Of a stretch of 32,000 nucleotides of DNA, positions 1-17,012 are shown one piece after another. The position numbers were made by a program, and so were the translations under genes. Every line of letters starts with the position of its first letter. Within the stretch, counting starts at the first letter, position 1. This DNA is from Desulfocapsa sulfexigens DSM 10523 (GTDB taxonomy: Bacteria > Desulfobacterota > Desulfobulbia > Desulfobulbales > Desulfocapsaceae), in the NCBI RefSeq assembly GCF_000341395.1, contig NC_020304.1:3000001-3032000 (forward strand), written 5' to 3'. The notes beneath the pieces are model-generated. The model searched no databases. It saw only the letters and a list, made by a program, of their open reading frames with translations, and was not told the DNA's origin.

Positions 1-1454
1 ATAATGAGCGGATTGTCAAAATCAAAGCCAAAGAGACCGGGGTTTTCTCCAATCACTGCCGCTGAAAAAATGTAGAACACATAGTCATAGGTTTGTTCGG
101 GTATTTTATCACGATACTGTTTAAAAAACTGCCAGAAATTACGTTCTTTTGGATTATTCGGCATATCTCTCACAAGTTGAATAACGCGGTTTTCTCCCCA
201 GTTGTACGAGGCCATTACCAATAGCCCGGAGGCCTGAGCATCGGTATCGTAAATTTTTCGCAGGTACTTTGCTGCGGCCACGGTTGATTTGGCAAAATTA
301 TGCCGCTCGTCAAGGGGATCTACCTTTCGTTGCTTAAAAAGGGGACCTGTTTGCAGGCCATATCGAGAGCCGGTTTCAGGAATGAATTGCCACATACCTT
401 TGGCAATACCCCAGCGGGTTTTAGGGCCCAGGGCATTTACGTTAAAATTACTTTCCTGCAGAGCCAGATAAAAGAACTGTGGTGGGAGAAAATAATAGCG
501 CATGGTTCTGGCAATTGGAGAAGTGTAGCCATTGTTTTCTGCGCGTTCCAGGGCGTTAACAAGACGGCTGCTTGACTGCCACTTCTTGATGTAGCGTATG
601 ACTTCACTGGTAAAGTCAGCAGGAACAAATATTTCACATTCACCAAAAATTCTCGCAGTTTTTAGAATTGCCTCTTCCTGGGGACTGATATTTTTATAGA
701 TCCCGAGAGTGTCGACAAATTCGCTATAGCTGTTTTCCAACTCTCTTGCCTGCTGTTTATAATATTCTACCCTGGCAATGGTAGCAGTGTCATCACTGTC
801 TCGTGCTGTTTGAAGAACATCTGCAAACTCTACTTCCAGTCCTTTCATGGTATAGAAGATTTCAGCAGCGAGTTTTTTTTGTTTCTCAACCTGCAGATGC
901 ATGTAGATGGCAACTGAGCCAGCAATACAAAAAAGGCAGGTAACCAGGCCAATGATGATACCATACTTTCTTTTCTGTTTTTTCTGAACCTGGGCAAAGG
1001 CACGTCTAACCATTATGGTGTGCTCACCTGCGTCCCCGTCATCCTTATCACCGAAATAATGTTCCTGATAGTGGGACATGGATCGTGGAGTTCCAGGCTT
1101 TTTAGTTTCCTGGAAAGGCTGGTCAACCGACAGTGTAAGGAGTGGCCCGTTTCTTCCCAGTTCAATCCTGGTCAGTTTTTTAATGGCAATGCGATTAACC
1201 CGGTTACCGTCAACAAAAATACCATTGGCACTATTACAGTCTTGAATCCACCAGGTGTCTGCCAGAAAAATTACCTCGGCATGGTGGCGACTGACTACCG
1301 GATCGGTAATAGCTATATCACAGTCGGGATCACGACCGACACGAAAAGAGGAGGAAAATGCGCGTTCTGCAAACTGTCCGGCTGGCCATGTTGCTGAGAC
1401 TAAAACAGCTGGAGGTGACGAATTCTGCCCGTTATTTTCCAGCCTTTGAATCAT
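1..1454 (-). CDS. FHA domain - single TM helix - SLT-type (family 1) lytic transglycosylase fusion protein; C-terminus runs off the window start
   Basis: Absent from the ORF track because there is no in-window stop. Manual minus-strand translation from the ATG at 1454..1452 is open to position 3 (484 codons). N-terminus reads MIQRLENNGQ..SFRVGRDPDCDIAITDPVVSRHHAEVIF..SANGIFVDGNRVNRIAIKK..IELG, an FHA-like G-R..D..I....VSR.HA / NG..VNG pattern. A basic stretch plus TM follows (KKQKRKYGIIIGLVTCLFCIAGSVAIYM, residues ~164-185). SLT motifs are then present: YLALQESNFN (catalytic E-S), GIAKGMWQFIPETG (GLMQ-like) and MASYNWGENR (AYNxG). It starts 9 nt after the stop of the preceding DUF4150 gene, so it is likely co-transcribed. 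The plus-strand ORF 1020..1397 is its shadow. Confidence 0.8.
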   Translation of the reverse strand, partial: MIQRLENNGQNSSPPAVLVSATWPAGQFAERAFSSSFRVGRDPDCDIAITDPVVSRHHAEVIFLADTWWIQDCNSANGIFVDGNRVNRIAIKKLTRIELGRNGPLLTLSVDQPFQETKKPGTPRSMSHYQEHYFGDKDDGDAGEHTIMVRRAFAQVQKKQKRKYGIIIGLVTCLFCIAGSVAIYMHLQVEKQKKLAAEIFYTMKGLEVEFADVLQTARDSDDTATIARVEYYKQQARELENSYSEFVDTLGIYKNISPQEEAILKTARIFGECEIFVPADFTSEVIRYIKKWQSSSRLVNALERAENNGYTSPIARTMRYYFLPPQFFYLALQESNFNVNALGPKTRWGIAKGMWQFIPETGSRYGLQTGPLFKQRKVDPLDERHNFAKSTVAAAKYLRKIYDTDAQASGLLVMASYNWGENRVIQLVRDMPNNPKERNFWQFFKQYRDKIPEQTYDYVFYIFSAAVIGENPGLFGFDFDNPLI

Positions 1455-1463: not shown

Positions 1464-1871
1464 TTAGGGTGCTAACAAAAGGACTTTGGTTTGGCTGGGT
1501 ACTATCCTCATACCAGGAACATTTGTACCATTCTGCAGAGTTGGACTTGTCAGCCGTGTCGCTGGTTTTCCCTGGAAAAGCACGGTAAACGATCCTGCTA
1601 GATGCCGTGAAGGCCCCATGACTCTGCCAGAGGCTACTCCCATGGAGACACCTGCATTGTCACCATTGGTCATGGGGGTGACCGTTCCCATGTTATGAGC
1701 TGGCATTCCCATGATAAGAATTTTCGTACATGCGGTACCAGGATTTGCTGTGGGTCCCATTGCAATATTCGGATAAGGAATAGGTACAGGCGCAGGTGCT
1801 GGTGGAGCAGGGGTTAAACAAACGTCAGGAAAAGCAAAATCCTGACCCATCATTTGTGAATTGGCAAACAT
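1464..1871 (-). CDS. PAAR-like DUF4150 spike-tip protein (TagD-like); domain only, no C-terminal toxin extension
   Basis: 135 aa. The N-terminus MFANSQMMGQDFAFPDVCLTPAPPAPAPVPIPYPNIA matches the DUF4150 hallmark (..PDVC.TP....P.PYPN.A). The remainder is Gly/Thr/Met-rich. Its position is the end of a vgrG-DUF2169-PRP-DUF3540 module. Confidence 0.85.
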   Translation of the reverse strand: MFANSQMMGQDFAFPDVCLTPAPPAPAPVPIPYPNIAMGPTANPGTACTKILIMGMPAHNMGTVTPMTNGDNAGVSMGVASGRVMGPSRHLAGSFTVLFQGKPATRLTSPTLQNGTNVPGMRIVPSQTKVLLLAP

Positions 1872-1883: not shown

Positions 1884-2534
1884 CTAACCCATATGGATCA
1901 TTTTCCCATCAATCTTTATATTTTCTTTTGCAGTAACAACAGAATATTTGCCACGTAAGGACATCAGTCTTTCTGCATTGTAATCGATCTTACCAGCCTT
2001 AAGCTGATCAATATCTTCCACCTCACGGTAAGATCTTTTAACCTTTTGCCGCAAACAATCAAAAATTGATTCCATCTTTCCAGCCATCAATTTAACCAGG
2101 GCAACTTTACCCTCAAGGAAATTTCCAATATAGGATAAATGAGATATACTACACTCACTCTGCTCAGCCACTACCTGAAGATTTGTAGAGACAATGCGAA
2201 TCTGTGATGGACTGGTTACATTCACCCCCTGCTTACCTGCCAATTGCAGATTTCCATTTGGAGATAGCAGCTCAGTGTCGCCGTCAAAGAGAAGACGATT
2301 TCTGGTACTTTTTGTTCTCTCAAGTACAGATAATATATAACACTCACCAGCAGATGAACTTACCACTAGAACTTTGTCTTCAACTTCAGGATACAGTAAG
2401 CAACCAGCCGCTTTTTGTGCCCGATATCGGGAATCACCAACAGCTACCCAAAAACACTCTCTTTCAATTTCTACAACAACACCCATTTCCTGGAACATAG
2501 TAGGATCTTGTTCCTGTCTCGCAAGGTTATCCAT
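1884..2534 (-). CDS. DUF3540-like protein (TagC-like), T6SS spike accessory
   Basis: The ORF track gives 1884..2582 (232 aa). I prefer the internal ATG at 2534 (MDNLARQEQ..) because it is preceded by AAAGGAAAAACAA (Shine-Dalgarno-like) and removes the 19-nt overlap with the upstream gene. The product call rests mainly on conserved synteny between a pentapeptide-repeat gene and a DUF4150 gene. I cannot verify the family from sequence memory. Confidence 0.6.
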   Translation of the reverse strand: MDNLARQEQDPTMFQEMGVVVEIERECFWVAVGDSRYRAQKAAGCLLYPEVEDKVLVVSSSAGECYILSVLERTKSTRNRLLFDGDTELLSPNGNLQLAGKQGVNVTSPSQIRIVSTNLQVVAEQSECSISHLSYIGNFLEGKVALVKLMAGKMESIFDCLRQKVKRSYREVEDIDQLKAGKIDYNAERLMSLRGKYSVVTAKENIKIDGKMIHMG

Positions 2535-2563
2535 TTGTTTTTCCTTTATATGTTGAAAGTATA

Positions 2564-3619
2564 CTATAAGGTTGGGCTCCATTGTTCAGCAGCTGCCAGT
2601 TCAGGATCTGTTCCTACAATCGTTCCTTTGTTAACACCAGTCCAGATGGCCTGATGTTGTAGAGTCTGGTGAAATTTTGTTCGAGTCACATCAGCTCTGC
2701 TCATGTCAGCGTCGCTAATGTCTGCGTGGGAAAAATCACAGTAAGTAAGGTTTGCACCAATAAACCGTGATGATCGACAAAGAGCATTGTTGAAAATAGC
2801 ACATTCAAGTTGTGTATTGCTCAGGTTGGCAAGCCGTAGATTTGCACCATCAAAGCAGCTTTGGATTAGCCGGGCATTTTGAAGGCTCGCCTGTTCCATC
2901 ATGGCGTTCATAAATATTGCATATTGTCCCTGGACATTGTCAAAACAGGTTTGACGCAGGGTGGCATCCATAAAGTTGGTTTGAGTGATGTTTGCTCCAG
3001 TCAGATTTGCCAGTGAAAGATCTGCCCCTTTGAGCATTGCCCTGGAGAAATCAATTTCCCGAAGATCTTTCCCGCTAAGATCAGAATTCATGAGAAAAGA
3101 TTGAATAAAGCGGGCACCTTTAAGTTCAGTGCGGGTCAGGTCGGCTCCCAAAAAAACTGTCTGTTCACAATTGGCCTTACTGAGACAAATTCCATCTGTC
3201 TCGCATTCTATAAGGGCAGCCTTGAAGAGGGTGCTGCTTTTAAAGTTGGCATCAACAAGAGAACATTGATAGAAAACAGTATCTGTGCAGTCAGAGTTTT
3301 GAAAGGACACTTCACTGGCCTGGGTTTCTGCAAATTTCGCATCTGTGAGGATGCAATTGTCAAAACACACCTTATCGGTCTTACATCTGTTGAAAATTGT
3401 TTCACATAGCACAGCGCCACTGCAATCTGCTCCAGAAAAATCAGATTCATTAAAGATAGATTCGGTGAAAATTGTACCTGACATATTCGCCCCGGCAAAA
3501 TTCACTTGTTCAAAAATCCCACCACCAAGTTCAAGTTTAGACAGGTCTTTACCGGAGAAGTCTCTCCCACTAATGACTTCTCCTTTTTTGATTTTTGCTA
3601 CCAGTTTTGAAGGTGTCAT
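2564..3619 (-). CDS. Pentapeptide-repeat protein (TagB-like)
   Basis: 351 aa. It is almost entirely tandem A(D/N)LXX-type pentapeptides, e.g. ANMSGTIFTESIFNESDFSGADCSGAVLCETIF.., ADLSLANLTGANITQTNFMDATL.., ANLRLANLSNTQLECAIFNNALCRSSRFIGANLTYCDFSHADISDADMSRADV. A short non-repeat tail ends the protein. Confidence 0.9.
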   Translation of the reverse strand: MTPSKLVAKIKKGEVISGRDFSGKDLSKLELGGGIFEQVNFAGANMSGTIFTESIFNESDFSGADCSGAVLCETIFNRCKTDKVCFDNCILTDAKFAETQASEVSFQNSDCTDTVFYQCSLVDANFKSSTLFKAALIECETDGICLSKANCEQTVFLGADLTRTELKGARFIQSFLMNSDLSGKDLREIDFSRAMLKGADLSLANLTGANITQTNFMDATLRQTCFDNVQGQYAIFMNAMMEQASLQNARLIQSCFDGANLRLANLSNTQLECAIFNNALCRSSRFIGANLTYCDFSHADISDADMSRADVTRTKFHQTLQHQAIWTGVNKGTIVGTDPELAAAEQWSPTL

Positions 3620-3629
3620 TTACTTGTGC

Positions 3630-6197
3630 TCATAGTATTGTCTGGCCAATATTGGCCTGTTCAATTCTAGCATTGCTGAAATCAGTGTGTAAAAGGTCAG
3701 CTGCAAAAAGATTGGATCCGCGAAGGTCAGTTCCTGTGAGATTAGCCATTTGTAAAGAACCTTCAAAAAGGTTGATTGAAACCATGTAGGCTCTGCTTAA
3801 ATCGGCATTCATAAATTGAGTTTGTTTGGCGATAGCTCGGTAGAACCTACTGTTTTCGAGTTTGGTTTCACTCAAATCGGCATTACTTAAATCAGCCTCG
3901 GTAAACATTGCTCCTGTGAAATCACCGCCACGAAGATTTGCATTAATAAGTTTACAGAAGGAAAAATCAGCATCTCTAAAGCTGATCTCCACGGAAGCAC
4001 TGACACCTGTTAGATCAGCCTGGTGGAATATTGCCCCATCCCCCTGGCATTGTACAATAGTTGTGTTGCATAAGCTGGCTTTGGAAAAATTGACCCTGTG
4101 CAGCTTAGTTTGAATAAAAAGCGCCTCACTGATATTACTTTCTGAAAAATCGGCACCCTCAAGTTTGCTTTCAATGAATTGTCCTTTGGAAATGTCTGCG
4201 CGGTTCAGGTTGGCATTCAATCCTTCACATTGCATAAAATCAGCCTCTTTAAGGCTTGCCCCGTGAAATTGCGCCCCTTCCATGTTGGCTTTAAAAAGAA
4301 CGGCATTGTCCATGGAGCAGTTGCTGAAGCTTGCACCTGTGAGATTTGCGTCACCAAGATTCACCGCATCCATTTTGGACATATCACACACAGCATGAGC
4401 CATATTGGCACGGGCCAGCATACAGTTTTTAAGATTGGCTCCCTTCAGTTGCGTATTGCTGAGGTCAGCACCTTCAAGGAAGCAATTTTCAAGATCAATG
4501 CCATCAAGATTCATACCCGAAAGATTGACACCGGTAAAATCCATTCCGTTCATTGGTTCATTTTTTGAAAAATATTTCAGAAGAGTGGCACGATTTTCCT
4601 CATTTTTCCTGTTTGAATATACTGTAGCAGGATTATGGTGGCCATATTGGCGGTAAAGATCATTGAATTGCTGCTCAGTCTGTTTCAGCTGGTTCTCCTT
4701 TTCTTTGGTGAGCCTGCCAAATTTGCGAAGATCTGCACTTATTTCATCAGAAGAAAACTGTATTCGTCCACCATTTTTTTTCTGGTCATCCTGTGCCAGT
4801 TTCTCATGATCCAATCCCATGGATTCAGACATTTCCCGACATTCTTTTTTCATCGCCTCTTGTTTATCCTGCATATCCTTGAGAGATTTTTCAACAAGAA
4901 GATCCAAATTGTCTAAATCGTCCAAACCACTGTTTTGAGCAGTAAGTGTTGTCTTGTGGTCAAAGGTGTTTCCGGTAGTGAAACCAAGATCATTAAATTC
5001 CTTTTTTGATCTTTCAGCCTCAAGTTTGATTTTTTCCTGCAGGTGTTTTTCAAAAAGACTTTGCTTCTTATCCTTTATTGTTTCATTGACAAGTTCCTGA
5101 AGCCCTGACACATCATCGTCAGGAATAAGATCGTTCTCCTTGAGCGCGTACAGGTGACCCTTTTCAGGATCAAGCCTTCTTTCCAGGGCAGCTAAATAAT
5201 GGTTTTTGCTTCTGGGTGTATCGGTCTCCCGCTCATAGGCCACAAGTATTTCGGAAATATCTCTGGCCTGGTTATCCGAGACATCATGGGAACCGCGGTG
5301 TATGAGTATCCCTTTTTCAAGATGGGGAAAGAGAAGAACCGTATCAAGGACCAGTGGGATTTCCGAAAACCTCAAACTGTCTTCAACACTTTGATTGACA
5401 AAACACCGCGGATGAATTCCCGGGAGTCTTGATTGAAGGGATGATCGTTCAGGGTGCATGTTTTCACAGCTGAATTCTTCATTACCAATTAAAAAACCCT
5501 CGAATTGCTGGTCCAATGGAGCTGCATTGAAAAACGTTGGATCAAAATCCTTTGCAAATCCTGGAAACAGTTCTTTGAGCCATTTCTGATCATAGGTTCC
5601 GGTTTTTGCGTATCGTTGGGGCCAGGTAAGTTCGTAGCCTTGAAATCCTGCGGGTTCAATCTGGTCAGTTGGAAGAAGAAGGGGCTGCCGTGGGTCAATG
5701 ATATTGGGTAAGGGATAGGAGGTTTTATCCAATTGATCCATAGAGGGAATATAGCCTTTACCCAGTGGGTTTTTGGCATACTCTGGACCTCCAAAAGAAT
5801 TCTGATAGCTAATTGGTAAAGAGAGTATTTCCTGTGGATCACTGATTTCCCAGCGGGTGTTGCGTTTTCTCCATTCACGATCACCGAAGATATTTAATTC
5901 TTTGTCCAAATTTCCCAGCTTGACTCTTACAGTACCAGCCTGAACACTTTTTCCAGTCGGTGAGTAAAATCCGCCATGGATCAAGACCTCGGCTCTTTTC
6001 TTTGGCATACCAAGATCGAATAAGGTTTCAGGACCAATCTCTTCCTGCAGCATTTTCCAGAGATCAATCTCATTTTCTATCTTACCTGATGGGTAAAAAG
6101 AAAAGAGAGATATTACGGTGGAAACGAATACCTGTTTTTTATTATTCTCATAAACCTTATAGAGTAAGCTCAGTTTGAGCGGCTTAATTACTTTCAT
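3630..6197 (-). CDS. DUF2169 domain + charged coiled-coil linker + C-terminal pentapeptide-repeat domain (TagAB-like fusion)
   Basis: 855 aa. Residues ~1-345 carry DUF2169-like motifs (FDLGMPKKRAEVLIHGGFYSPTGKSV..VRVKLGNLDKELNIFGDREW). Residues ~365-520 are K/E/Q-rich, e.g. KDKKQSLFEKHLQEKIKLEAERSKKE and KDMQDKQEAMKKECREM. Residues ~551-855 are continuous pentapeptide repeats (GMDFTGVNLSGMNLDGIDLENCFLEGADLSNTQLKGANLKNCMLARANMAHA..). It lies directly downstream of vgrG. Confidence 0.85.
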   Translation of the reverse strand: MKVIKPLKLSLLYKVYENNKKQVFVSTVISLFSFYPSGKIENEIDLWKMLQEEIGPETLFDLGMPKKRAEVLIHGGFYSPTGKSVQAGTVRVKLGNLDKELNIFGDREWRKRNTRWEISDPQEILSLPISYQNSFGGPEYAKNPLGKGYIPSMDQLDKTSYPLPNIIDPRQPLLLPTDQIEPAGFQGYELTWPQRYAKTGTYDQKWLKELFPGFAKDFDPTFFNAAPLDQQFEGFLIGNEEFSCENMHPERSSLQSRLPGIHPRCFVNQSVEDSLRFSEIPLVLDTVLLFPHLEKGILIHRGSHDVSDNQARDISEILVAYERETDTPRSKNHYLAALERRLDPEKGHLYALKENDLIPDDDVSGLQELVNETIKDKKQSLFEKHLQEKIKLEAERSKKEFNDLGFTTGNTFDHKTTLTAQNSGLDDLDNLDLLVEKSLKDMQDKQEAMKKECREMSESMGLDHEKLAQDDQKKNGGRIQFSSDEISADLRKFGRLTKEKENQLKQTEQQFNDLYRQYGHHNPATVYSNRKNEENRATLLKYFSKNEPMNGMDFTGVNLSGMNLDGIDLENCFLEGADLSNTQLKGANLKNCMLARANMAHAVCDMSKMDAVNLGDANLTGASFSNCSMDNAVLFKANMEGAQFHGASLKEADFMQCEGLNANLNRADISKGQFIESKLEGADFSESNISEALFIQTKLHRVNFSKASLCNTTIVQCQGDGAIFHQADLTGVSASVEISFRDADFSFCKLINANLRGGDFTGAMFTEADLSNADLSETKLENSRFYRAIAKQTQFMNADLSRAYMVSINLFEGSLQMANLTGTDLRGSNLFAADLLHTDFSNARIEQANIGQTIL

Positions 6198-6203
6198 GAG
6201 AAC

Positions 6204-8492
6204 CTAACTGAATATTTTAATACCGCATTTTTCCAATGCTATGGCACCATATTTTTGGATAAGAGCATTGCCGTCTTTTAGATCCATTGCTCCTTTGCCA
6301 AATCTCAAGCCATAGTTAATTTCTCCTATAATAGCTGAGCAGGTGACAAATTTGGCACCAACAAAATTTTCCATTGCTGTGCCGATGGTGAGGGTGTAGT
6401 CCTCTGCAAAATGTATCGTCTGAACACTCCCACTGGATATTGCCCGTGTCAACCCGTTACTATGGCCGGTATGATTCCCCCCGACATCAATATGACGATC
6501 GCCTGTTACTGTGTATTTATCATTTCCTCCTACAGAAAATTCTCTGTTTTGGTCGACACTATAAAACTGATTTCCTGTAACAGAGAAATCTTCAACGCCA
6601 TCGACAATCTCAATCCTATCACCATTGCAATTAATGAGATCTCCACCTCCAATAATATCAGTTCGTCCTCCACTTTCTATGGTAATATTCTGTCCTTGTC
6701 CAATGGTGACATTTTGCATCTGATTAATTTCGACATTCTCTTCTCCGGTAACCTCAACTTTGCGATTTCCATCAACATAAATATATTGTTTGTCAGAACC
6801 TGCACCAAACGCAAAAGTTGAAGTACCTACGGTTTTATTTTCACTTCCTGCAATTCCAATGTATTTACTGCCACCAACGGTTTCATCAGAGTTTTCATCG
6901 CATTCCGAAACCATTGTCCCATCCGTATGCAAATAAATATTACCGGCATTAACTGCCCCTAATGACACAATGGATCCTTTAGTTGGTGATGACATATGGA
7001 TCTGTTGCCCACCGTTGGAATCTTCAATCCGGATTTGATTTCCACCTGCGGTACGAATCATTGACTGAGTCTGGTTAGAGCCTGTTACCGGGCTGCCAGT
7101 CTCAGGATTGGGAACGGTTCCGGAAATGATGGGTCGATCCGGATCTCCATCAATAAAGGTCAGCAGTACCTCGGTTCCCTTGTGCAGTGGAAAATGCATG
7201 CCATAGTCAGCACCGGCATAGGGCTGTGCCATTCGCACCCACCGAGAAGCCTTTCCATCTGCAGAATCGCTTTGATCAAAGGGGAGTTTTATCTTATAGC
7301 GACCTTCGTCATCAATTTCAGCATACTCACCATCTCCACCCGCATCAACGGTACCGTTAAGCGTCCCCTTCAATTTGGGCTTTTCCGCCAACCTTTCTGG
7401 CCTGAATTGGGCGTCTGCTGGGATACAGGTGAAATTATTAAAATAAGATGGGCCCTGCATATCAGTTTCTTCGACCGTATCACCGGTTCCGGTCAGGTAG
7501 GTGGACTGTACTCCCTGATGAGAGAGTTCTGTTATCAGATAACGCTGATTATAGGAGTCCCTGTAGTGGTCGTGCATCTCAAAAATATAACCGGCAAGAA
7601 AAGGTGGTACGGTCCCTTCACCATAAAATATAGCCTCACGGCAGAGGATCTCTTCAGCACGTATTCGGGCTAAGGCATTTCCCTCCTCCGGTGTTTTGAA
7701 ATGTTCTCCATAAATATAGACATGACCACGCCCCTCTGTGTCCACATCTGCCTCTCCCTTGAGATCAAGAGAAGGCTTGCGATAGTTGTAGTCTTTCAGA
7801 ATGACTTTTTTAGGCAACAGATGCTGATGGCAGGTGAATTCGCGAACCTGCTCAGTGGTGGAAGGAGAGAGAGAATCCGGTGGTGAATACCGGATTGATT
7901 CTCCGGAAGGGATATCTTCGTGAGCAGTGGAGGCATCTGCAATAATCAGTTTTTCTGCATCATCACCCTGTTGAAAATAATAATAGATTCCTTCCCGTTC
8001 CATCCATCGGGAAATAAAATTAAAATCACTTTCGTTATACTGGCAGATGTACTCCCATGGAGCATAGTTACCAGTCAGTTTTAATTCATAATCATGAGTG
8101 GTAAGACCGGTTTGTTTGAGCACCTCTTCGATGATATCGGGAATACTTTTATCGAGAAAGAGCTGGTTTTCAAGGTATTGGTCGGAAATCCATAGTCGTG
8201 GAACCAGTATGGCTCGAAAATAAATATGTCCGGAATACTCATGCAACTGCTCAAAGCGGGATAGAATGCCATGAAAGACTCGAAGCTCTTCCCCGTTTTT
8301 CTCAATTCTTAATTTTACCGGATTTTTCAACACCTCTTTTAAGTTTATATCAGGGTCATCGGCATAAAGAGTTATGTCAAATTCATACAGTTTAGAGATT
8401 GCCTCTGTACCGTTAAATTCAGCAACAGTAAAGGTGTCGTCCGGCTGAGATGTGGAAGTGAAAATAAATCTAATGTTTTCCTCAACTGGCAT
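6204..8492 (-). CDS. vgrG: T6SS spike protein VgrG (TssI)
   Basis: 762 aa. N-terminal gp27-like region (FTVAEFNGTEAISKLYEFDITLYADDP..). gp5 OB-fold region (RWVRMAQPYAGADYGMHFPLHKGTEVLLTFIDGDPDRPIISGTVPN). A long beta-helical repeat region follows (..GGNQIRIEDSNGGQQIHMSS..VTGEENVEINQMQNVTIGQGQNITIESGG..). Its start overlaps the clpV stop by 1 nt. Confidence 0.95.
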   Translation of the reverse strand: MPVEENIRFIFTSTSQPDDTFTVAEFNGTEAISKLYEFDITLYADDPDINLKEVLKNPVKLRIEKNGEELRVFHGILSRFEQLHEYSGHIYFRAILVPRLWISDQYLENQLFLDKSIPDIIEEVLKQTGLTTHDYELKLTGNYAPWEYICQYNESDFNFISRWMEREGIYYYFQQGDDAEKLIIADASTAHEDIPSGESIRYSPPDSLSPSTTEQVREFTCHQHLLPKKVILKDYNYRKPSLDLKGEADVDTEGRGHVYIYGEHFKTPEEGNALARIRAEEILCREAIFYGEGTVPPFLAGYIFEMHDHYRDSYNQRYLITELSHQGVQSTYLTGTGDTVEETDMQGPSYFNNFTCIPADAQFRPERLAEKPKLKGTLNGTVDAGGDGEYAEIDDEGRYKIKLPFDQSDSADGKASRWVRMAQPYAGADYGMHFPLHKGTEVLLTFIDGDPDRPIISGTVPNPETGSPVTGSNQTQSMIRTAGGNQIRIEDSNGGQQIHMSSPTKGSIVSLGAVNAGNIYLHTDGTMVSECDENSDETVGGSKYIGIAGSENKTVGTSTFAFGAGSDKQYIYVDGNRKVEVTGEENVEINQMQNVTIGQGQNITIESGGRTDIIGGGDLINCNGDRIEIVDGVEDFSVTGNQFYSVDQNREFSVGGNDKYTVTGDRHIDVGGNHTGHSNGLTRAISSGSVQTIHFAEDYTLTIGTAMENFVGAKFVTCSAIIGEINYGLRFGKGAMDLKDGNALIQKYGAIALEKCGIKIFS

Positions 8493-11143
8493 TAGTCATT
8501 CCCTCCAAATTGTATAGCAAAGTTACCATCTTGATCCATATCGAGGTGAACACTTGCAGGCATCGCCTCAGCACTCATGAAGGTGAGAATTTCTTTGGAC
8601 ATTTGTGGTAAAACCGTGCCATTCATGATGTGATCAATATTTCTTGCCCCGGTTTCCACTTCAGTACACCTGGCCGCGATCTGTTTAATAACCTCTTCGC
8701 TGTAGGTTAATTTCATCTTGTGAGTCTCGGCCAATCGTTTAACCAGCTTGTTTAGTTTTAATTTTACAATATCACTTAAGATGTCCTGCGGTAAAGTCAT
8801 ATAGGGAACCACCGTCATTCGTGCAAGGAGGGCAGGCTTGAAATGATTGCTCAAAATAGGCCGAACGGCATTCATAATGACCTCTGGCGGCAGATCAGCG
8901 TCGCCGGTGGTCATTTCGGTGATGACATCGGTTGCCAGATTGGAGGTGAGAAAAATAATAGTATTTTTGAAATCGATTTCTCTTCCTTCACCATCGGAGA
9001 GTGAGCCTTTATCAAAAACCTGATAAAAGAGATTCATCACCTCAAGATTGGCCTTTTCAACTTCATCCAGAAGAACTATTGAATAGGGACGCTGGCGAAC
9101 GGCTTCGGTGAGCACACCTCCTTCACCATAGCCGACATATCCTGGAGGTGAACCTACCAGTCGACTCAGGGTATGGCGTTCCTGAAATTCACTCATGTTA
9201 ATGGAGGTTACAAATCGCTCCCCTCCAAGGATCAGATCGGCCAGAGCCAGGGCTGTCTCAGTCTTGCCGACTCCACTTGGTCCAACCAGTAAAAATATTC
9301 CAAGAGGCTGATTCGGATCTTTAAGTCCTGATTTTGCAGCTTTGATTACTTCAGCAATCGCTGCAAGACCGTGATCCTGTCCCTTGATGCGATCCTTCAT
9401 CTTTTCTTCAAGGTTTACTATATTTGAAGCCTGATCACGCATGACACTACCGAGCGGGACACCTGTCCAATCCGATACAACTTTGGAAACGATATCCGGA
9501 TCAACTTCTATGCGAACCAGGGACTCATCTTTCTGGATAGACTTAAATTCTTCTGTCAGTGTTACAAGTTCTTTTTCAAGTTGCGGAATTATCTCTTTGT
9601 TCTCAGGTTCTTCAAGGGTAGCGGCTTCCTTGAGTTTGAAAAGCTCTTTTCGTGAATTTATTAATCTACCAGCCACTTCTTGCTCGGTTTTCCACTGCAG
9701 GATAAGGGCTTCCAGTTGTTTGCCAAGATCCGCTATTTTGGCCACGATTTCTGAAAAACGTTCTTCGTCTATCGCAAAACCATGAAGCTGATCTCTTTCC
9801 ATGGCCTTTTTCTCACGTTCCAGGGCCTGGACACTCCGTTCTCTGTCCTCAATTACATCGGGTTTAGCGGTGAGAAGCACCTTGACCCGGGCGGCACTGG
9901 TATCGAGCAGATCTACAGCCTTATCAGGCAACTGCCTGCCGGAAATATAGCGACTGGAAAGTTCGGCTGCTGCAATAATAGCGTCATCACGGACTATTAC
10001 CCCATGAGCCTCTTCGTACTTTTGTTTTAAACCACGCAGGATAAGGATGGCTGTTTCAGTGGAAGGTTCTTCAAGTTTAACAAGTTGAAATCTTCTGGCA
10101 AGGGCCGGGTCCTTCTCGAAATATTTCTTGTATTCAGACCAGGTTGTGGCGGCAACTGTCCGTAATTCGCCTCTGGCTAAAGCCGGTTTGAGGAGGTTCG
10201 CAGCATCGCTTTGTCCAGCAGCACCACCGGCACCAATCAGGGTATGAGCTTCGTCGATAAAGAGGATGATCGGCTTTGGTGATGCCTTGATCTCGTTAAT
10301 AACTGATTTGAGGCGATTCTCAAATTCTCCTTTGACTCCGGCGCCTGCCTGAAGAAGTCCCATGTCAAGGCCGAGAATAGATACATTTTCAAGGAGATCA
10401 GGTACGTCTCCTTCAACTATCCTCAGGGCAAGGCCTTCAACGACTGCAGTTTTACCAACACCTGCTTCTCCGACCACAATGGGATTGTTTTTTCTTCTTC
10501 TTGCAAGGATATCAACCATTTGTCGTATTTCAAGATCTCTTCCAAAAACCGGGTCGATCTCACCGTCTTTAGCTTTCGCGGTAAAATCTACACAAAATTT
10601 TCCAAGTGCCGTGGAGTCTCTGGGGCCTGAAACCTCCTTACTCTCTCCTGCCTCACCTGGAGCAGGCTGTTCAATGGATGGTTTAACAATATCCCAGAAT
10701 TCACTCTTGAGTCCATCAAACGATATACCATTCAATTGATCAAGAAATTGTCCTGCACCAAAGCGGGATGGATTGTTGACCAGGGTTAGCAGCAGTACTC
10801 CCGATCGAAGTCCGTTTTCATCAAGATCCACCGAGGCAATCAGCCAGGACTCCTGAAACCATTCCATCAACAGTGGAGAAAAAACGGGTTTGGCAGCATT
10901 TCCGGTTTTGAATTCTTCAAGGGCATGATCAATACCTTTACTGAATTTTCCGGGATCTATATCATAATGACGTAAAATAAGGGGAAGATCAGACTGATCT
11001 TCTTCAAGGAGTTTGGAAAGAAAATGCTCAAGGGTTACCTCATAATGGCTCCGTGAAACACACAGGCCGGCTGCGGCCTCAAGACAACGGGTACAAAAAG
11101 GATTTAAGCGCCCTAATAGCGATTTAATGTCTACGGTCAGCAT
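8492..11143 (-). CDS. clpV: T6SS AAA+ ATPase ClpV (TssH)
   Basis: 883 aa. Two Walker A motifs are present (GEAGVGKTAVVEGLA and GPSGVGKTETALALA), each with a Walker B (ILFIDEAH, VLLDEVEKA). There is a Clp N-domain-like N-terminus and a middle coiled-coil region. Confidence 0.95.
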   Translation of the reverse strand: MLTVDIKSLLGRLNPFCTRCLEAAAGLCVSRSHYEVTLEHFLSKLLEEDQSDLPLILRHYDIDPGKFSKGIDHALEEFKTGNAAKPVFSPLLMEWFQESWLIASVDLDENGLRSGVLLLTLVNNPSRFGAGQFLDQLNGISFDGLKSEFWDIVKPSIEQPAPGEAGESKEVSGPRDSTALGKFCVDFTAKAKDGEIDPVFGRDLEIRQMVDILARRRKNNPIVVGEAGVGKTAVVEGLALRIVEGDVPDLLENVSILGLDMGLLQAGAGVKGEFENRLKSVINEIKASPKPIILFIDEAHTLIGAGGAAGQSDAANLLKPALARGELRTVAATTWSEYKKYFEKDPALARRFQLVKLEEPSTETAILILRGLKQKYEEAHGVIVRDDAIIAAAELSSRYISGRQLPDKAVDLLDTSAARVKVLLTAKPDVIEDRERSVQALEREKKAMERDQLHGFAIDEERFSEIVAKIADLGKQLEALILQWKTEQEVAGRLINSRKELFKLKEAATLEEPENKEIIPQLEKELVTLTEEFKSIQKDESLVRIEVDPDIVSKVVSDWTGVPLGSVMRDQASNIVNLEEKMKDRIKGQDHGLAAIAEVIKAAKSGLKDPNQPLGIFLLVGPSGVGKTETALALADLILGGERFVTSINMSEFQERHTLSRLVGSPPGYVGYGEGGVLTEAVRQRPYSIVLLDEVEKANLEVMNLFYQVFDKGSLSDGEGREIDFKNTIIFLTSNLATDVITEMTTGDADLPPEVIMNAVRPILSNHFKPALLARMTVVPYMTLPQDILSDIVKLKLNKLVKRLAETHKMKLTYSEEVIKQIAARCTEVETGARNIDHIMNGTVLPQMSKEILTFMSAEAMPASVHLDMDQDGNFAIQFGGND

Positions 11144-11179
11144 GGTTCTCTCCGATTGTTGTTAGTAATGGAATATAAG

Positions 11180-12208
11180 TTATCTTTGAGGATAAAACAG
11201 GTTACTTTTTTCTCCGATCTCTTCTCCAGAAAACAGCCAGCTGTCAAGACCAAGGCCCGACCATTGTTCGCCTCCAAGACAGACTGTTTTGGCCTGTCGA
11301 CCCGCCATGGTTACCTTAATGTCGTAATCAAGAGGATCACTGACGAAGAGGTCTGTCAGCATGACAACCTTATTATACAAGGCGCTGCCGGGGAGAAATG
11401 CTCTATATTCTGGTTCATCAAGTGGTCCTATTTCTATACGAAACCGACCCATTCGATCTCCAATCTCTTCTCCAAGAAAGCTGTCACAGCCAAGGGCGAC
11501 AACAGATGCACCAAGCTGAATTCTCTGATCTTCAGGAATTTTCGCTTTTCGTTCCAGGCAGGAGAGAATGTCAACGGGAAGATTTAAAGCGTCGGAAAGC
11601 AGGGTTTTCAGGCCTAAGGCTGATCTTGGGGCCTGACTGAACAATCCGGCATATCGAAGTAAATCCTTGGGGTTTTGAATATTTTTTCGGAATTCCGGTT
11701 CTCCCAAACCCAGTAAGCAAAAAAGACGCTCCAGATGGGAATTCTCCTCTTCCTCACTGATTTGTTGAAACTGCCGATACTTCAACCAGCTTTGGAAAAA
11801 GAGGAGATAGAGTCTTTGGTGAATGATATCGAGGAAATCACGGCTGGCAGATGTGTCTTCTGAGGCCTCATCCAACAGCTCCTCACTGTAAAAGGTTGGC
11901 AGGGGAGATGAGGACCCGTATAAACTTAAAAAATTAGTTTTTATTTTGAACGTACTCTTGTCATTCTGATCACAATGTTCTTCGATCGATTCAATATCAC
12001 TTGCAGGAAAACCAAGGGATAAATGGGGGACAATCCGGATTTGATTATGTTGGTAGGGGGCTGCTTTACTCTCAGAGGACGGAGAATCAAGATAAAGGCG
12101 GAGCAGTCTAATGACCTGAAAAAAAGAAAAGTTCTCTCCTTCTTTCAGTAAGGACAACTTGACATCTAGCTTTAAATCAGGGGACGTTCCCCTATCCGTG
12201 CCGGCCAT
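11180..12208 (-). CDS. tssG: T6SS baseplate protein TssG
   Basis: 342 aa. The N-terminal FSFFQVIRLLRLY motif is typical of TssG. It overlaps the 3' end of tssF by 37 nt and lies in the conserved tssE-tssF-tssG order. Confidence 0.9.
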   Translation of the reverse strand: MAGTDRGTSPDLKLDVKLSLLKEGENFSFFQVIRLLRLYLDSPSSESKAAPYQHNQIRIVPHLSLGFPASDIESIEEHCDQNDKSTFKIKTNFLSLYGSSSPLPTFYSEELLDEASEDTSASRDFLDIIHQRLYLLFFQSWLKYRQFQQISEEEENSHLERLFCLLGLGEPEFRKNIQNPKDLLRYAGLFSQAPRSALGLKTLLSDALNLPVDILSCLERKAKIPEDQRIQLGASVVALGCDSFLGEEIGDRMGRFRIEIGPLDEPEYRAFLPGSALYNKVVMLTDLFVSDPLDYDIKVTMAGRQAKTVCLGGEQWSGLGLDSWLFSGEEIGEKSNLFYPQR

Positions 12209-13905
12209 GAAATGATTTCTCCTCTCAAACTTTCTTTAAGGGTGAACCTGGTAAAGGAATTAAAAGTTGAATATACTGCAAGAAATTCGTTGAGGATTGA
12301 AGCAAAAAGATAGAGATCACCTTGACTTGCAAAGTGATCATAACGGGCCTCCATATGAATTTCCCTCCCCCGCATCATAAGACCGTTTACTAGCCTGTCT
12401 CCAGGGGTGGAACTGATCTTCTGCAGACCATCTATTCGCTTCTGATTGGCTAGTAAAGTCGTTCTGTCTTTAGTGTCAGGAAAAAGGTACAGGCCGAGTA
12501 ATGTCTTTAAATTTTTAATATCAGCAAGTGAAGTGTAATTCAGGGACAGATGTCCGAGAAGTCTCCAGAGGAGGTTTTTCTCCAGAGGTGGCTGAGCCCC
12601 GGATGTGGGTGGACTTATATTGGAAAAGGTGATGAATTCAGGAGTTGAGCTTGTGGGCTGTGATATGTCACCAACCTGGATACTGTCGGGAAGATCACCA
12701 TTGGTGCACGTCAGTTCGATGCTAAGAGTCTCAGGAAGTGGTGGGCCATCTTTTTTAGGGTAACTTACAGAAATATAGGTGTCGGTCACCCTGCGTGATG
12801 GCGATTTCCTTTTACTTGTATTGTAAACAGGGCCAGATGCACCGTTTCGATTAAAGTGGTCAAAATGTTGATATTCCCTTGCTGTTGCAGTTCCCTGGAT
12901 GTAACCGGTTACCCTGTCCACCGAGTACACCTGGAAATGAGTTAAATTTGATGCAGCGGGCCGAACACGGTATTCGCTCATCCGGTGATCAAGACGGACG
13001 GGGTCTGCTTCATGCTTAAAAAGATTGAGTACAGGAGTGGCAAAAAGAATGAAATCTTTTGTACGGATTCTTGGTATTTGAAAAGGAATGTCGTTTAACT
13101 CAAAAATAATCTCAAATTGTGTTCCTTCTCCGCGATTGAACCATTTTTCAAGCCCGGTGAGATTAAGAAAAAGAAAATTCTCAGGGAGAGTGAAATATTC
13201 CTGAAGAATTCGGTATCCAGGAAAAGAGTTGCCGGGATAGGGCAAGACGCCATCTGCCATATTGAATCCCACAGGTTGCAGATGTTCTTTAGTTAAGGAA
13301 AATTCGGAGTCCTGATCTTTCGCCTTAATAATTATACGACGTAGATAATGACGAAGGATAAAATATTTGTCACTGGCAGAAGAGTAGTCACCCGCCAGAT
13401 GAAATTGTAAATTTTTTAGCTGAAGATTGTTGAGAGCTCCACCCTTTGTTTGAAGTGTGACCCGGATGGAGGAAGCCATTCCTGGGGTTTCCACAAAAGC
13501 GACATCCGTGATCGCTATCGGTTGTACCTCAACATCAAAACAGGTTTGAAAGAGGCAGGTTGTTCCGGCAACGGGGACCGAGGCCAGTTGGACACCTTTT
13601 TTTATTTTTAAGGCCTGTTTAAGTGAAGATTTGGGCTGGAAGGCGACAATGGCAGCGGAAGGTAATGGTCTAAGGTAATGCGGCCATATCAGATGAATGA
13701 GATCGTGGATGATTTCGGGAAAATCGTCATCAAGTTTTTCCCGGATGAGGCCGGTCAGAAAAGCTACTCCTTCCAGCAGTCGTTCGACATCGGGATCAGC
13801 AGAGGAACCGCTCAACATCGATGCTATGGAAGGGTGCGTTTCAGCAAATTCTGCCCCAAGATCACGCAAGGCAGCAAGTTCCTGAAGGTAGTAGTGATTG
13901 AGCAT
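12172..13905 (-). CDS. tssF: T6SS baseplate protein TssF
   Basis: 577 aa. The N-terminus MLNHYYLQELAALRDLGAEFAETHPSIASML is the characteristic TssF start (yY..EL..LR..g.eFa..hP.iA). Synteny supports the call. Confidence 0.9.
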   Translation of the reverse strand: MLNHYYLQELAALRDLGAEFAETHPSIASMLSGSSADPDVERLLEGVAFLTGLIREKLDDDFPEIIHDLIHLIWPHYLRPLPSAAIVAFQPKSSLKQALKIKKGVQLASVPVAGTTCLFQTCFDVEVQPIAITDVAFVETPGMASSIRVTLQTKGGALNNLQLKNLQFHLAGDYSSASDKYFILRHYLRRIIIKAKDQDSEFSLTKEHLQPVGFNMADGVLPYPGNSFPGYRILQEYFTLPENFLFLNLTGLEKWFNRGEGTQFEIIFELNDIPFQIPRIRTKDFILFATPVLNLFKHEADPVRLDHRMSEYRVRPAASNLTHFQVYSVDRVTGYIQGTATAREYQHFDHFNRNGASGPVYNTSKRKSPSRRVTDTYISVSYPKKDGPPLPETLSIELTCTNGDLPDSIQVGDISQPTSSTPEFITFSNISPPTSGAQPPLEKNLLWRLLGHLSLNYTSLADIKNLKTLLGLYLFPDTKDRTTLLANQKRIDGLQKISSTPGDRLVNGLMMRGREIHMEARYDHFASQGDLYLFASILNEFLAVYSTFNSFTRFTLKESLRGEIISWPARIGERPLI

Positions 13906-13919
13906 TGCGTATCTTCTGG

Positions 13920-14333
13920 TTATTTTTTTATGCTTATCTGACCATCGGAATTTAAAAGACTTTCAAAAAGTACTGAGGTATTGGAACCTGAGGTGGCAAG
14001 TTTTGCAAAAATCTGAAACTTCACAGCAAGACGATCTTCTTCCTGGGGGGTAAAGGCTACCCGCACGGCTCGCAGTCGTGGTTCGTACTGGGTAATTGTC
14101 TGTCTGATTGCCCTTTCAAAGCCTCGGAGTGACTGAGGGTATTCAGTAAGAAATTCAGTGAAATCAGGGGTTCCGTATTCTTCAGAAATCAGGACATTTC
14201 CCTGCCGGGTATTGAGGATCTGTTTCAGGTGGTCCTGGATGGAGTCGATCACCTTCAACGGATCCTCACTTTCCCGACGGAGAGGGTCATGCTCCCTCTG
14301 CCGGATACGCTCTAATAACCTGGCTTCCCGCAT
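13920..14333 (-). CDS. tssE: T6SS baseplate protein TssE (gp25-like)
   Basis: 137 aa. The size and sequence (..SIQDHLKQILNTRQGNVLISEEYGTPDFTEF..YEPRL..V) fit the GPW/gp25 family. Its position is between hcp and tssF. Confidence 0.9.
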   Translation of the reverse strand: MREARLLERIRQREHDPLRRESEDPLKVIDSIQDHLKQILNTRQGNVLISEEYGTPDFTEFLTEYPQSLRGFERAIRQTITQYEPRLRAVRVAFTPQEEDRLAVKFQIFAKLATSGSNTSVLFESLLNSDGQISIKK

Positions 14334-14362
14334 GATTCAGTTATCCCGTGTCATCTATACAT

Positions 14363-14380
14363 TCAGGATGAGATTCCTGA
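14363..14380 (-). other. Short hairpin (6-bp stem TCAGGA/TCCTGA, 6-nt loop) in the hcp-tssE spacer
   Basis: Read directly: tcaggatgagattcctga. It is not followed by a U-tract on the transcript, so at most it is a weak attenuator or RNA-stability element. Confidence 0.2.
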
Positions 14381-14383
14381 ACA

Positions 14384-14872
14384 TCAGACCATTGGAGCTT
14401 CCCAATCATCTTCAGCCGTAATGCCACCATCTTCCCAGGTCCATATTATTTTTTGATAACAAAAAGAGACGTGCTCTCTTTCTTTGTGCTGCATATTTTC
14501 AGGATATTTGTTGTTAAGCATCTCCTGACGTATTTTAGAGATGGACGCATTTTCCAGTTGGATGGTGTAGTGCTGTACTTCCTTGCCGGTTGAGGAAGGT
14601 TGCCAACACCGAAGCTCAAGGCTGGTTATGTTTTCATTATTGACCATGGCTGAATAAATAAGAGGACTTGACTTATCCACCTCTTTGACAAGGGTGAGCG
14701 GGCCATGTTGTCTCTTTCCGGTGGGAAGTCCAGAGGCTGCATCTCTTGGCGAAGATATTTCCTGATCAAAAGCAATTATAGCGATCATATCTTCACGACC
14801 TGCCTGGGTTACAGATCCTTTAATCTCGCCCTGAGTCTCTCCGGTAAGCTTGAGGTATGCATTTAATGCCAT
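14384..14872 (-). CDS. hcp: T6SS inner tube protein Hcp (TssD)
   Basis: 162 aa. MALNAYLKLTGETQGEIKGSVTQAGREDMIAIIAFDQEISSPRD..GKRQHGPLTLVKEVDKSSPLIY is a canonical Hcp1-family N-terminus. A strong SD (AAGGAGA) precedes the ATG. Confidence 0.93.
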   Translation of the reverse strand: MALNAYLKLTGETQGEIKGSVTQAGREDMIAIIAFDQEISSPRDAASGLPTGKRQHGPLTLVKEVDKSSPLIYSAMVNNENITSLELRCWQPSSTGKEVQHYTIQLENASISKIRQEMLNNKYPENMQHKEREHVSFCYQKIIWTWEDGGITAEDDWEAPMV

Positions 14873-14954
14873 TTGTCTGTCTCCTTAAGTTGTAATTTGA
14901 TAAGTGTTCAGCGGATGGAACAGTCTCAATTGAATTATCAAGAACATGGCTGTG

Positions 14955-16442: not shown

Positions 16443-16451
16443 GGTTCTCTC

Positions 16452-16940
16452 CTATTTATCCTCGACACCGAGTTCTTTCAGCAGTTGATCTTTGGACTCG
16501 TCATCCTTCACAAGGCTTTGGATTTTCTTCCGAAATTCAGGTACATTTGACAGAGGTCCTTTTAACGCGGTCAGGGCCTGGCGAAGTTCCATGAGTTTTT
16601 TTAGTTCAGGACTGTTTTGGGCTATGGCATCTGGGGAAAAATCTTTCAGTGATTCAAATGCCAGTTTAACAGCAAGTTCTTCGTCAGGATCATCCGATAA
16701 TTTATTTGGTACCGTCATGTTCAAGCTGAGGTCTTGCTCTTTCATGACATCGTTGAAGTTGTCTTTATCGATATTGATGGGGTCTCGATCCTCAACAGCA
16801 CGCTCATCATCTTTTTGGGTGAAATCTCCCATGATGAGTATTTTTAGAGGAAGTTCCACCTCTTCCTTGGCATCTCCGGTTGCCGGACGATAGACAATAT
16901 TGACTCTCTCCTTAGGAGCAACAGAACCTTCCTTTGCCAT
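16452..16940 (-). CDS. tssB: T6SS contractile sheath small subunit TssB (VipA)
   Basis: 162 aa. The N-terminus MAKEGSVAPKERVNIVYRPATGDAKEEVELPLKILIMGDFT is the conserved TssB pattern. An SD (AGAGG) lies 8 nt upstream. Confidence 0.95.
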   Translation of the reverse strand: MAKEGSVAPKERVNIVYRPATGDAKEEVELPLKILIMGDFTQKDDERAVEDRDPINIDKDNFNDVMKEQDLSLNMTVPNKLSDDPDEELAVKLAFESLKDFSPDAIAQNSPELKKLMELRQALTALKGPLSNVPEFRKKIQSLVKDDESKDQLLKELGVEDK

Positions 16941-16982
16941 GATTTGCCTCTTTTGTTTAGTTGACGGTTAATAACATAACGT

Positions 16983-17012
16983 ATTATATGATAATATCTC
17001 TATCAATATAAA
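16983..17012 (-). promoter_or_regulatory. Candidate sigma70-type promoter upstream of tssB: -35 TTTATA, 18-nt spacer, -10 TATAAT, with an imperfect palindrome TGATA-N7-TATCA (16989..17005) in the spacer
   Basis: Read on the minus strand within the only long (164 nt), visibly AT-rich gap inside the T6SS array. The -10 is a perfect TATAAT ~43 nt upstream of the tssB ATG. The -35 is weak. No experimental support. Confidence 0.3.

Follow-up and report, generated by a model that had tools for sequence, protein, structure and literature searches.

Here we analyzed a 32,000-nucleotide stretch of the Desulfocapsa sulfexigens DSM 10523 genome (hereafter the window), at the left end of which a gene of a type VI secretion system (T6SS) locus encodes an FHA domain and an SLT domain in a single protein, FHA-SLT. 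This protein belongs to a real, widely conserved, and unnamed family with hundreds of full-length orthologues, and its sequence identifies it as a bitopic inner-membrane protein with an MltD-like GH23 domain of predicted lytic transglycosylase activity. Across genomes, linkage of the gene to the T6SS is frequent though not universal, and linkage to genes for Ser/Thr kinases or PP2C phosphatases is at least as common. Our preferred reading, to which we give roughly even chances, is that FHA-SLT is a lytic transglycosylase serving as the output of a kinase, and that in D. sulfexigens it is most likely a dedicated wall-opening factor for the insertion of TssJLM.

Architecture and conservation of FHA-SLT

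The initial annotation, made from the letters of the window, had read one uninterrupted minus-strand frame over positions 1 to 1454, and translation bears this out: the frame holds 484 codons without a stop, and its product is 100% identical to a 488-amino-acid (aa) protein of D. sulfexigens DSM 10523 (P0001), which its source annotates merely as "FHA domain-containing protein." The public contig L003, which agrees with the window at each of the 2516 bases they share, runs past window position 1, and the missing 3' end could be recovered; IAAK and the stop codon are the sole part of the gene outside the window and complete the protein at 488 aa. A fusion of two genes through sequencing error is ruled out, since all 80 retained loci, which come from independent assemblies, match across both FHA and SLT. 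In 78 of the 83 loci, FHA-SLT was called as a single open reading frame (ORF).

Both domains that had been recognized by eye were recovered by profile searches, the three parts of the protein lie where the initial annotation had put them, and by profile the protein is a member of both families. Residues 38 to 100 match Pfam FHA (PF00498) with an E value of 3e-18 (66.4 bits against a cut-off of 20.7), residues 316 to 434 match Pfam SLT (PF01464) with 7e-15 (55 bits against a cut-off of 21.3), and the Pfam model Yop-YscD_cpl also matches residues 36 to 101 (3e-13). In the AlphaFold2 (AF2) model, with a mean predicted local distance difference test (pLDDT) score of 77, residues 17 to 110 form a beta-sandwich (pLDDT, ∼90) followed by a disordered linker, by one unbroken helix (residues 144 to 219) that holds the transmembrane (TM) segment, and by a helical, presumptively periplasmic region (helices 223 to 250, 258 to 269, 281 to 293, and 297 to 307) leading into the SLT domain. 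Compared with solved FHA domains in Foldseek, the sandwich reaches target-normalized template modeling scores (TM-scores) of 0.81 to 0.85; the structural matches of this part include Rv1747 FHA-1 (0.83), GarA, and OdhI, as well as PDB entries 6i2p, 4qcj, and 6hc1. When the whole model was submitted to Foldseek, FHA matches only were returned, with none for the helical region of residues 187 to 315.

On the catalytic side, a profile of the family matches PDB 8rhe, a LysM peptidoglycan-binding protein, at 1.3e-11 over its catalytic part. The E-S, GLMQ-like, and AYNxG motifs of the first reading correspond to E334-S335 (within YLALQES), G353-M-W-Q356, and S416-Y-N-W-G420, all of them essentially invariant. 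No NCBIfam model describes the whole protein; the best ones are the catalytic region of MltD (NF008050, profile positions 92 to 238 only, 6e-14, 51.2 bits against an equivalog cut-off of 508) and the FHA portions of FhaB and TagH, none of which comes near its cut-off.

The topology proposed in the initial annotation, with a positively charged stretch ahead of a single hydrophobic helix, was likewise recovered. Residues 164 to 186 have a 19-residue Kyte-Doolittle mean of 2.48 and form the only peak above 1.6. The 15 residues on the N-terminal flank contain seven K/R and no D/E, including the run KKQKRK, compared to three K/R and two D/E on the C-terminal flank. Because the N terminus is hydrophilic, the protein has no signal peptide. 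Exactly one TM segment was found in 77 of the 78 orthologues examined, and the N-terminal flank is the more positive one in 74 of 77, which agrees with the charge-based argument made initially and places the FHA domain, by prediction, in the cytoplasm and the SLT domain in the periplasm, here and across the family.

Residue conservation was assessed over 78 full-length orthologues from at least four phyla. The pThr (phospho-threonine) pocket residues R41, S55, H58, and N77 are each present in 75 to 76 of these proteins, and the motifs around them (G40-R41, S55-R56-x-H58, and S75-x-N77-G78) in 72 to 77; with its pocket thus intact and conserved, the FHA domain is a predicted phospho-threonine binder. 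Catalytic E334-S335 is found in 78/78, alongside the G-[MI]-W-Q motif and an [SC]-Y-N-W-G motif whose Y, N, W, and G are kept in 78/78. Two further positions stand out between the domains. Just before the membrane, Thr146 occurs in 76/78 proteins, position +3 is aliphatic in 78/78, and Arg150 is kept in 77/78 (the motif is invariant in A1), and in the presumptive periplasmic region F270-G-E-C-E274 is kept in 77 to 78 of the 78.

The family is broad. The best 120 database matches all combine FHA and SLT in proteins of ∼480 to 500 aa, an exhaustive search of 50%-identity representatives returned 277 clusters at an E value of ≤1e-30, and a scan of one genome per species yielded more than 562 confirmed FHA-SLT loci. 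Loci were found in Desulfobacterota, Acidobacteriota (Acidobacteriaceae, Bryobacteraceae, and Terriglobia), Ignavibacteria/Bacteroidota, and Nitrospirae, at 44 to 60% identity. The view that this architecture is uncharacterized has stood: we found neither a paper nor a curated family describing FHA-SLT, and the literature searched, that on the T6SSs of Acidobacteria and Desulfobulbaceae included, gave no description of an FHA-SLT fusion or of a lytic transglycosylase encoded in a T6SS locus.

Genomic neighborhood of the FHA-SLT gene

In D. sulfexigens, FHA-SLT has tight junctions on both sides. The TAA of the upstream PAAR-like gene is followed by 9 nucleotides (nt), TCAATTGAT, and then by the ATG of FHA-SLT, a spacing already reported in the initial annotation, and the gene forms part of the locus of a complete T6SS, in which all large minus-strand ORFs from 1464 to 25864 are T6SS genes by Pfam and NCBIfam. 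It had also been taken for the last gene of the operon, which it is not, because two conserved, co-directional genes follow on L003: gene X (259 aa, UWK_02692, "hypothetical," L003 positions 2537 to 3316, plus strand) starts 7 nt after the FHA-SLT stop codon, and gene Y (255 aa, L003 3342 to 4109, plus strand) starts 25 nt after X. In a terminator/promoter scan, terminator-like sites near the FHA-SLT gene were no commoner than in shuffled sequence.

Beyond Y lies a convergent gene (L003 4155 to 5723, minus strand) for a 522-aa protein that resembles a divergent TssB-TssC sheath fusion (VipB, 7e-28; weak VipA, 2.5e-3). Relatives that are 88% and 76% identical share a common order of PAAR-like gene, FHA-SLT, X, Y, convergent sheath-like gene, FHA protein, PP2C, Trypsin_2, kinase-PEGA, and CsgG/TPR, in which the second FHA protein, PP2C, Trypsin_2, and the Ser/Thr kinase with PEGA sit 3 to 9 kb downstream; the arrangement in Desulfopila matches. 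A kinase/phosphatase pair is thus found near the gene in close relatives, in line with the PpkA/PppA-type context invoked in the initial annotation. The second FHA protein carries two FHA domains and is tail-anchored, and the kinase has a single TM helix that separates a cytoplasmic kinase domain from periplasmic PEGA domains. This module may be the envelope-sensing counterpart of TagQRST-PpkA-PppA. Since X, Y, and the signaling genes follow FHA-SLT, the gene occupies a middle position in a T6SS super-locus, flanked by the spike module and a threonine-phosphorylation-like module. A six-frame translation of the window contains no FHA or SLT domain other than those of FHA-SLT, so that the description of FHA-SLT as the locus's FHA protein and the only cell-wall-directed function holds there; it does not extend further, as the relatives hold the second FHA protein, PP2C, Trypsin_2, and the PEGA kinase.

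For the wider family, we called and clustered the ORFs of 83 loci and searched them with the T6SS proteins of the window and the signaling proteins of Desulfopila. Linkage was counted within 10 kb of the gene in the 42 loci that are fully flanked, i.e., have ≥8 kb of sequence on either side of the gene. A T6SS core gene was found in 21 of the 42, a number that is perhaps too low because detection was by tblastn with Desulfocapsa queries only; a kinase or PP2C gene was found in 28, and kinase/PP2C or T6SS genes in 31. Immediately downstream of FHA-SLT (+1), 16 loci carry PP2C, and 14 carry the kinase in second place (+2); two loci have a kinase gene whose end falls 10 bases inside, or ∼85 bases before, the called FHA-SLT start. 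The T6SS-linked members are scattered across the entire protein tree and occur in at least five gene orders: immediately behind the PAAR-like gene (Desulfobacterota, Ignavibacteria, and Bacteroidota), immediately behind TssG, just ahead of TssB-TssC (Nitrospirae), downstream of TssF-TssG-ClpV-VgrG-TssK (Acidobacteriaceae), and with PP2C after it and then convergent with TssM-TssL-TssK. By our estimate, T6SS genes would be expected in only ∼1% of 20-kb intervals around a random gene. That the linkage persists despite rearrangement argues for a functional tie. The expectation that homologues are T6SS-linked is therefore borne out in part, in that the linkage recurs without being consistent and the family is not T6SS specific. 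In the usage of PMC13584744, a T6SS-associated gene is encoded inside T6SS loci and facilitates T6SS assembly or firing; FHA-SLT has the location of such a gene in D. sulfexigens, with partial linkage elsewhere, and is a candidate for the role.

Proposed function and alternative explanations

We propose that a Hanks-type Ser/Thr kinase and PP2C would form an envelope-signaling module with FHA-SLT as its output, the kinase writing and PP2C erasing pThr marks. The FHA domain would dock on pThr in the autophosphorylated kinase, in another T6SS component, or in its own T146-x-x-[IVML] motif, and docking would bring the peptidoglycan-cutting domain to the site of kinase activity or turn it on there. 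In D. sulfexigens, the enzyme would open the peptidoglycan for TssJLM, as an analogue of MltE or TagX under phospho-control. The enzyme is the likely wall-opening factor here because the T6SS super-locus has a short TssL and neither TagL nor TagX. As first reported, TssL has no domain for peptidoglycan binding (it is a DotU-only short form of 224 aa), and no OmpA/TagL-like domain was found among the 22 large window ORFs scanned. The licensing of local wall opening for the T6SS, a prediction of the initial annotation, is in our view plausible.

This proposal can be set against the two precedents. MltE, in the Sci-1 T6SS of enteroaggregative Escherichia coli, is a GH23 enzyme that opens the peptidoglycan for TssJLM (PMC13584744, PMC5841429). 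FHA-SLT, like MltE, is a GH23 lytic transglycosylase by its domain, and wall opening for TssJLM would be their shared job; MltE, however, is a housekeeping outer-membrane lipoprotein, encoded off-locus and activated by the periplasmic domain of TssM, without an FHA domain, an inner-membrane helix, or a kinase link. TagX, found in Acinetobacter and in the Burkholderia T6SS-1, is a locus-encoded, inner-membrane-anchored hydrolase with a periplasmic catalytic domain (PMC13584744). It resembles FHA-SLT in being encoded in a T6SS locus, anchored in the membrane, and equipped with a periplasmic wall-cutting domain, but it is a VanY-type L,D-endopeptidase, which cuts peptide stems rather than glycan, and has no cytoplasmic signaling domain. 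FHA-SLT is not a TagX, as neither VanY nor any other peptidase appeared among its Pfam matches up to an E value of 1.

Other families share single parts with FHA-SLT. With Fha1/TagH and PpkA/PppA, too, a T6SS locus combines an FHA domain, a Hanks kinase, and PP2C; TagH differs in being soluble and cytoplasmic and in joining FHA to T6SS_FHA_C, which in D. sulfexigens sits on a separate, FHA-less protein, and FHA-SLT fails the TagH model (TIGR03354) with 39.5 bits against 120.25, over the FHA part only. MltD (family 1D) is closest in the sequence of the catalytic domain, but MltD is a lipoprotein that ends in LysM repeats, whereas FHA-SLT has no lipobox, no LysM in Pfam, and a hydrophilic N terminus, with an FHA domain and a TM helix instead; together with its low NF008050 score, this places it outside the MltD family. 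GH23 enzymes encoded as part of a trans-envelope machine, for which they open the wall locally, are known from type III secretion systems (T3SSs) (EtgA, IpgF, and IagB), type IV secretion systems (VirB1), and flagella (FlgJ/SltF). These differ in being small secreted or periplasmic proteins governed by rod or needle contacts and not by a cytoplasmic phospho-reader. The T3SS ring proteins YscD/EscD/PrgH have the same layout of a cytoplasmic FHA fold, one TM helix, and a periplasmic domain, but in them the periplasmic part consists of ring-building motifs and is no enzyme; to our knowledge, the FHA-like domains of T3SSs lack the canonical pThr pocket, which is intact in FHA-SLT. Although FHA-SLT belongs to no named family tested (MltD, TagH, and TagX), it would work like the specialized wall-cutting enzymes of trans-envelope machines, with an FHA end resembling that of TagH/Fha1.

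How the signal might cross the membrane is suggested by the juxtamembrane motif. A threonine with an aliphatic residue at +3 suits the ligand preference of many FHA domains, which makes T146 a candidate kinase site as well as a candidate FHA ligand; its recognition in cis would constitute a switch, and in trans it would bring about oligomerization. In GarA/OdhI and Bdellovibrio DgcB, the FHA domain similarly shares its polypeptide with a conserved Thr on a flexible stretch, a role that is predicted for T146, and 6hc1, among the structural matches mentioned above, is the "DgcB FHA in complex with phosphorylated N-terminal peptide." In those cases cytoplasmic enzymes are controlled, whereas the output of FHA-SLT would lie across the membrane. 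We tentatively entertain, as a possibility with the balance tilted against it, a transmembrane phospho-switch in which pThr146 is read by the protein's own or a neighboring FHA domain and the TM helix is thereby moved or oligomerized, turning on the lytic transglycosylase where the kinase fires. In T6SS loci, such a switch would join the threonine phosphorylation pathway to the opening of the wall for the membrane complex, a link so far missing, and FHA-SLT would be the first dedicated lytic transglycosylase of a T6SS locus.

Several observations weigh against FHA-SLT being a phospho-controlled T6SS wall opener. T146 as a phospho-site is a prediction from conservation, and the tail-anchored double-FHA protein of the locus could be the true Fha1 equivalent. 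Kinases are numerous in Acidobacteria, and hence some of the kinase proximity must be due to chance. No T6SS gene was detectable within 10 kb in 21 of the 42 fully flanked loci, and a Solibacteraceae/Bryobacteraceae-type clade carries FHA-SLT singly, as a monocistronic gene amid housekeeping genes. In a Desulfobacterota member with a 7.7-Mb genome (L086, positions 10001 to 21467), no T6SS gene lies within 10 kb of FHA-SLT. These unlinked loci, the monocistronic clade, and L086 make a general, non-T6SS role of the family possible. As for the genes after FHA-SLT in L086, they encode a Peptidase_C14 (caspase-like)-FGE-sulfatase protein, DUF4384, a second Peptidase_C14, a double-FHA protein, PP2C, and a PEGA kinase.

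The strongest alternative builds on these points. FHA-SLT could serve kinase-regulated wall remodeling in general, in growth, division, or envelope stress, as an output of the Hanks kinase/PP2C/FHA module and with no T6SS-specific role, the module adjoining T6SS loci in some lineages by mere chance. Kinase/PP2C linkage does exceed T6SS linkage (28/42 against 21/42), the standalone, housekeeping-flanked loci form one coherent clade, both L086 and a second locus (L041, with FHA/PP2C/kinase and CsgG-like partners) carry signaling partners without T6SS genes, and the T146 motif and FHA pocket are equally conserved in T6SS-linked and unlinked members. However, the gene repeatedly turns up next to T6SS genes, in several phyla and at least five arrangements and often at a distance of ≤10 nt, against the ∼1% estimated for a random gene. 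Moreover, T6SSs are known to be regulated by just such a kinase/PP2C/FHA module (the threonine phosphorylation pathway), so its linkage is no argument against a T6SS role. We regard general remodeling as possible but, overall, rather doubtful.

Compared to these, it is unlikely that FHA-SLT is a peptidoglycan anchor or scaffold that replaces TagL or an extended TssL and grips glycan strands instead of cutting them. The short TssL and the lack of an OmpA-like gene in the window would fit such a role, as would a topology like that of YscD in the T3SS ring, for which the Pfam model matches as well; yet the catalytic Glu-Ser and the SLT motifs are invariant in 78/78 orthologues, which argues for retained catalysis, and anchoring and cutting can coexist. 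Finally, a secreted antibacterial muramidase effector (Tse3/Tge-like) riding on the PAAR-like/VgrG spike, with X and Y as its immunity proteins, is very improbable: the position right after the VgrG-Tvp-PAAR module is typical for effectors, SLT-like effectors such as Tse3 are known (PMC3792639), and Electrothrix has a genuine RHS-WHH toxin with SUKH immunity at the same junction, but a TM helix inside the protein and an FHA domain at its N terminus are ill-suited to a spike-loaded wall toxin, 45 to 60% identity across phyla at a fixed length is at odds with the fast evolution of effectors, many loci have no T6SS nearby, and X and Y, with neither signal peptide nor TM segment (maximum hydropathy, 1.16 and 1.25), are cytoplasmic and could not protect periplasmic peptidoglycan.

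The surrounding locus and implications for the T6SS

The features of the FHA-SLT gene and of the T6SS locus are collected in Table 1. The block VgrG-DUF2169/PPR-PPR-DUF3540-PAAR-like matches the class III Tvp spike-assembly module, which was defined in 2026 in Serratia (PMC13373197); its host here is a sulfur-disproportionating deltaproteobacterium. A six-frame scan found no FHA domain in the 245-aa protein with the TagH C-terminal domain. The gene for that protein is overlapped by the TssJ ORF as listed (TTG start, 24592 to 25323), the real start of which is probably further downstream, and upstream of it, with a 4-nt overlap, lies a gene for a 424-aa Cys-rich protein (25861 to 27135, minus strand) with CPECG...CPSC and CLNC motifs and no family match. 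Upstream of the T6SS locus, positions 27302 to 31986 (minus strand) hold a MacB-type tripartite efflux operon consisting of an outer-membrane factor, an HlyD-family adaptor, an ABC ATPase, and an FtsX/MacB permease.

Table 1. Positions in the window of the FHA-SLT gene, its encoded segments, and the T6SS genes upstream of it
Feature	Window positions	Strand	Basis or remark
FHA-TM-SLT gene	1..1454	-	484 of 488 codons; last 4 and stop past window position 1
FHA domain, predicted cytoplasmic, residues 17-110	1125..1406	-	Pfam, AF2, Foldseek, conserved pThr residues
Juxtamembrane motif G143-E-H-T146-x-x-[IVML]149-R150	1005..1028	-	Conservation; candidate kinase site/FHA ligand
Single predicted TM helix, N-in, residues 164-186	897..965	-	Kyte-Doolittle; KKQKRK before it
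Predicted periplasmic helical region, residues 187-315, with F270-G-E-C-E274	510..896	-	AF2 helices and conservation
SLT domain (GH23, MltD-like), residues 316-484; catalytic E334 at 453-455	3..509	-	Pfam, NCBIfam, profile against PDB
PAAR-like (Tox-PAAR-like) spike-tip gene	1464..1871	-	Pfam, 5.5e-40
VgrG and class III Tvp spike-assembly module	1884..8492	-	Pfam; classification after PMC13373197
DUF3540 (TvpC-like)	1884-2582	-	Pfam
Pentapeptide (TvpB-like)	2564-3619	-	Pfam
DUF2169-pentapeptide (TvpA-like)	3630-6197	-	Pfam
VgrG	6204-8492	-	Pfam
T6SS core: ClpV, TssG, TssF, TssE, Hcp, TssC, TssB, TssA, TssM, TssL, TssK, TssJ	8492..25323	-	Pfam, NCBIfam
245-aa protein, TagH/Fha C-terminal domain only (T6SS_FHA_C)	25127..25864	-	PF20232, 4e-5

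Downstream of FHA-SLT, neither X nor Y matched a Pfam or NCBIfam family or had a significant match in profile searches of PDB sequences. The X family is small, with 124 proteins whose named members belong mainly to Desulfobacterota, and the confident AF2 model of X (pLDDT, 93.6) shows an N-terminal flavodoxin/TIR-like domain and a C-terminal beta-sandwich; its Foldseek matches, which include TIR-APAZ and TIR-STING, are weak (query-normalized TM-score, ≤0.40). In one Nitrospirae locus (L023), X is the gene immediately upstream of FHA-SLT. Y co-occurs with FHA-SLT in Desulfobacterota and is found at ∼30% identity in Acidobacteriaceae (L036), in a metagenome-assembled genome (MAG) labeled "beta proteobacterium" (L045), and in an Acidobacteriota MAG (L061). 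The 522-aa sheath-like protein is extra to the canonical TssB/TssC of the cluster, is kept beside the tail-anchored FHA protein, and occurs also in L084, L085, L088, L006, and L009. The signaling module was located in L084 (5532 to 12253), L085 (14718 to 21470), and L002 (13093 to 21470), where it comprises the double-FHA protein, PP2C, Trypsin_2, the PEGA kinase, a 654-aa AhpC-TSA/TPR/CsgG-like protein, and a CsgG/LpoB-like protein. In Electrothrix (L001, 5268 to 10004), genes for the RHS-WHH nuclease toxin and SUKH immunity, together with ParE-like and PIN/MazE toxin-antitoxin genes, lie between the PAAR-like gene and FHA-SLT, and this insertion identifies the PAAR-like/FHA-SLT junction as a hotspot for effectors. 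A Cas6 gene lies just downstream in the same locus.

The passage of the T6SS membrane complex through the cell wall is known in two cases, through MltE in E. coli and TagX in Acinetobacter, and a 2026 review of T6SS accessory genes names TagX as the sole locus-encoded peptidoglycan hydrolase, with MltE as an outsider and no lytic transglycosylase encoded in a T6SS locus (PMC13584744). If our preferred reading is true, FHA-SLT would be a dedicated wall-opening enzyme for a T6SS type that spans Desulfobacterota, Acidobacteriota, and Ignavibacteria/Bacteroidota, and wall opening would be directly coupled to the kinase pathway that sets the time and place of T6SS assembly. In a Gram-negative cell, phosphorylation in the cytoplasm could then govern a wall-cutting enzyme in the periplasm.

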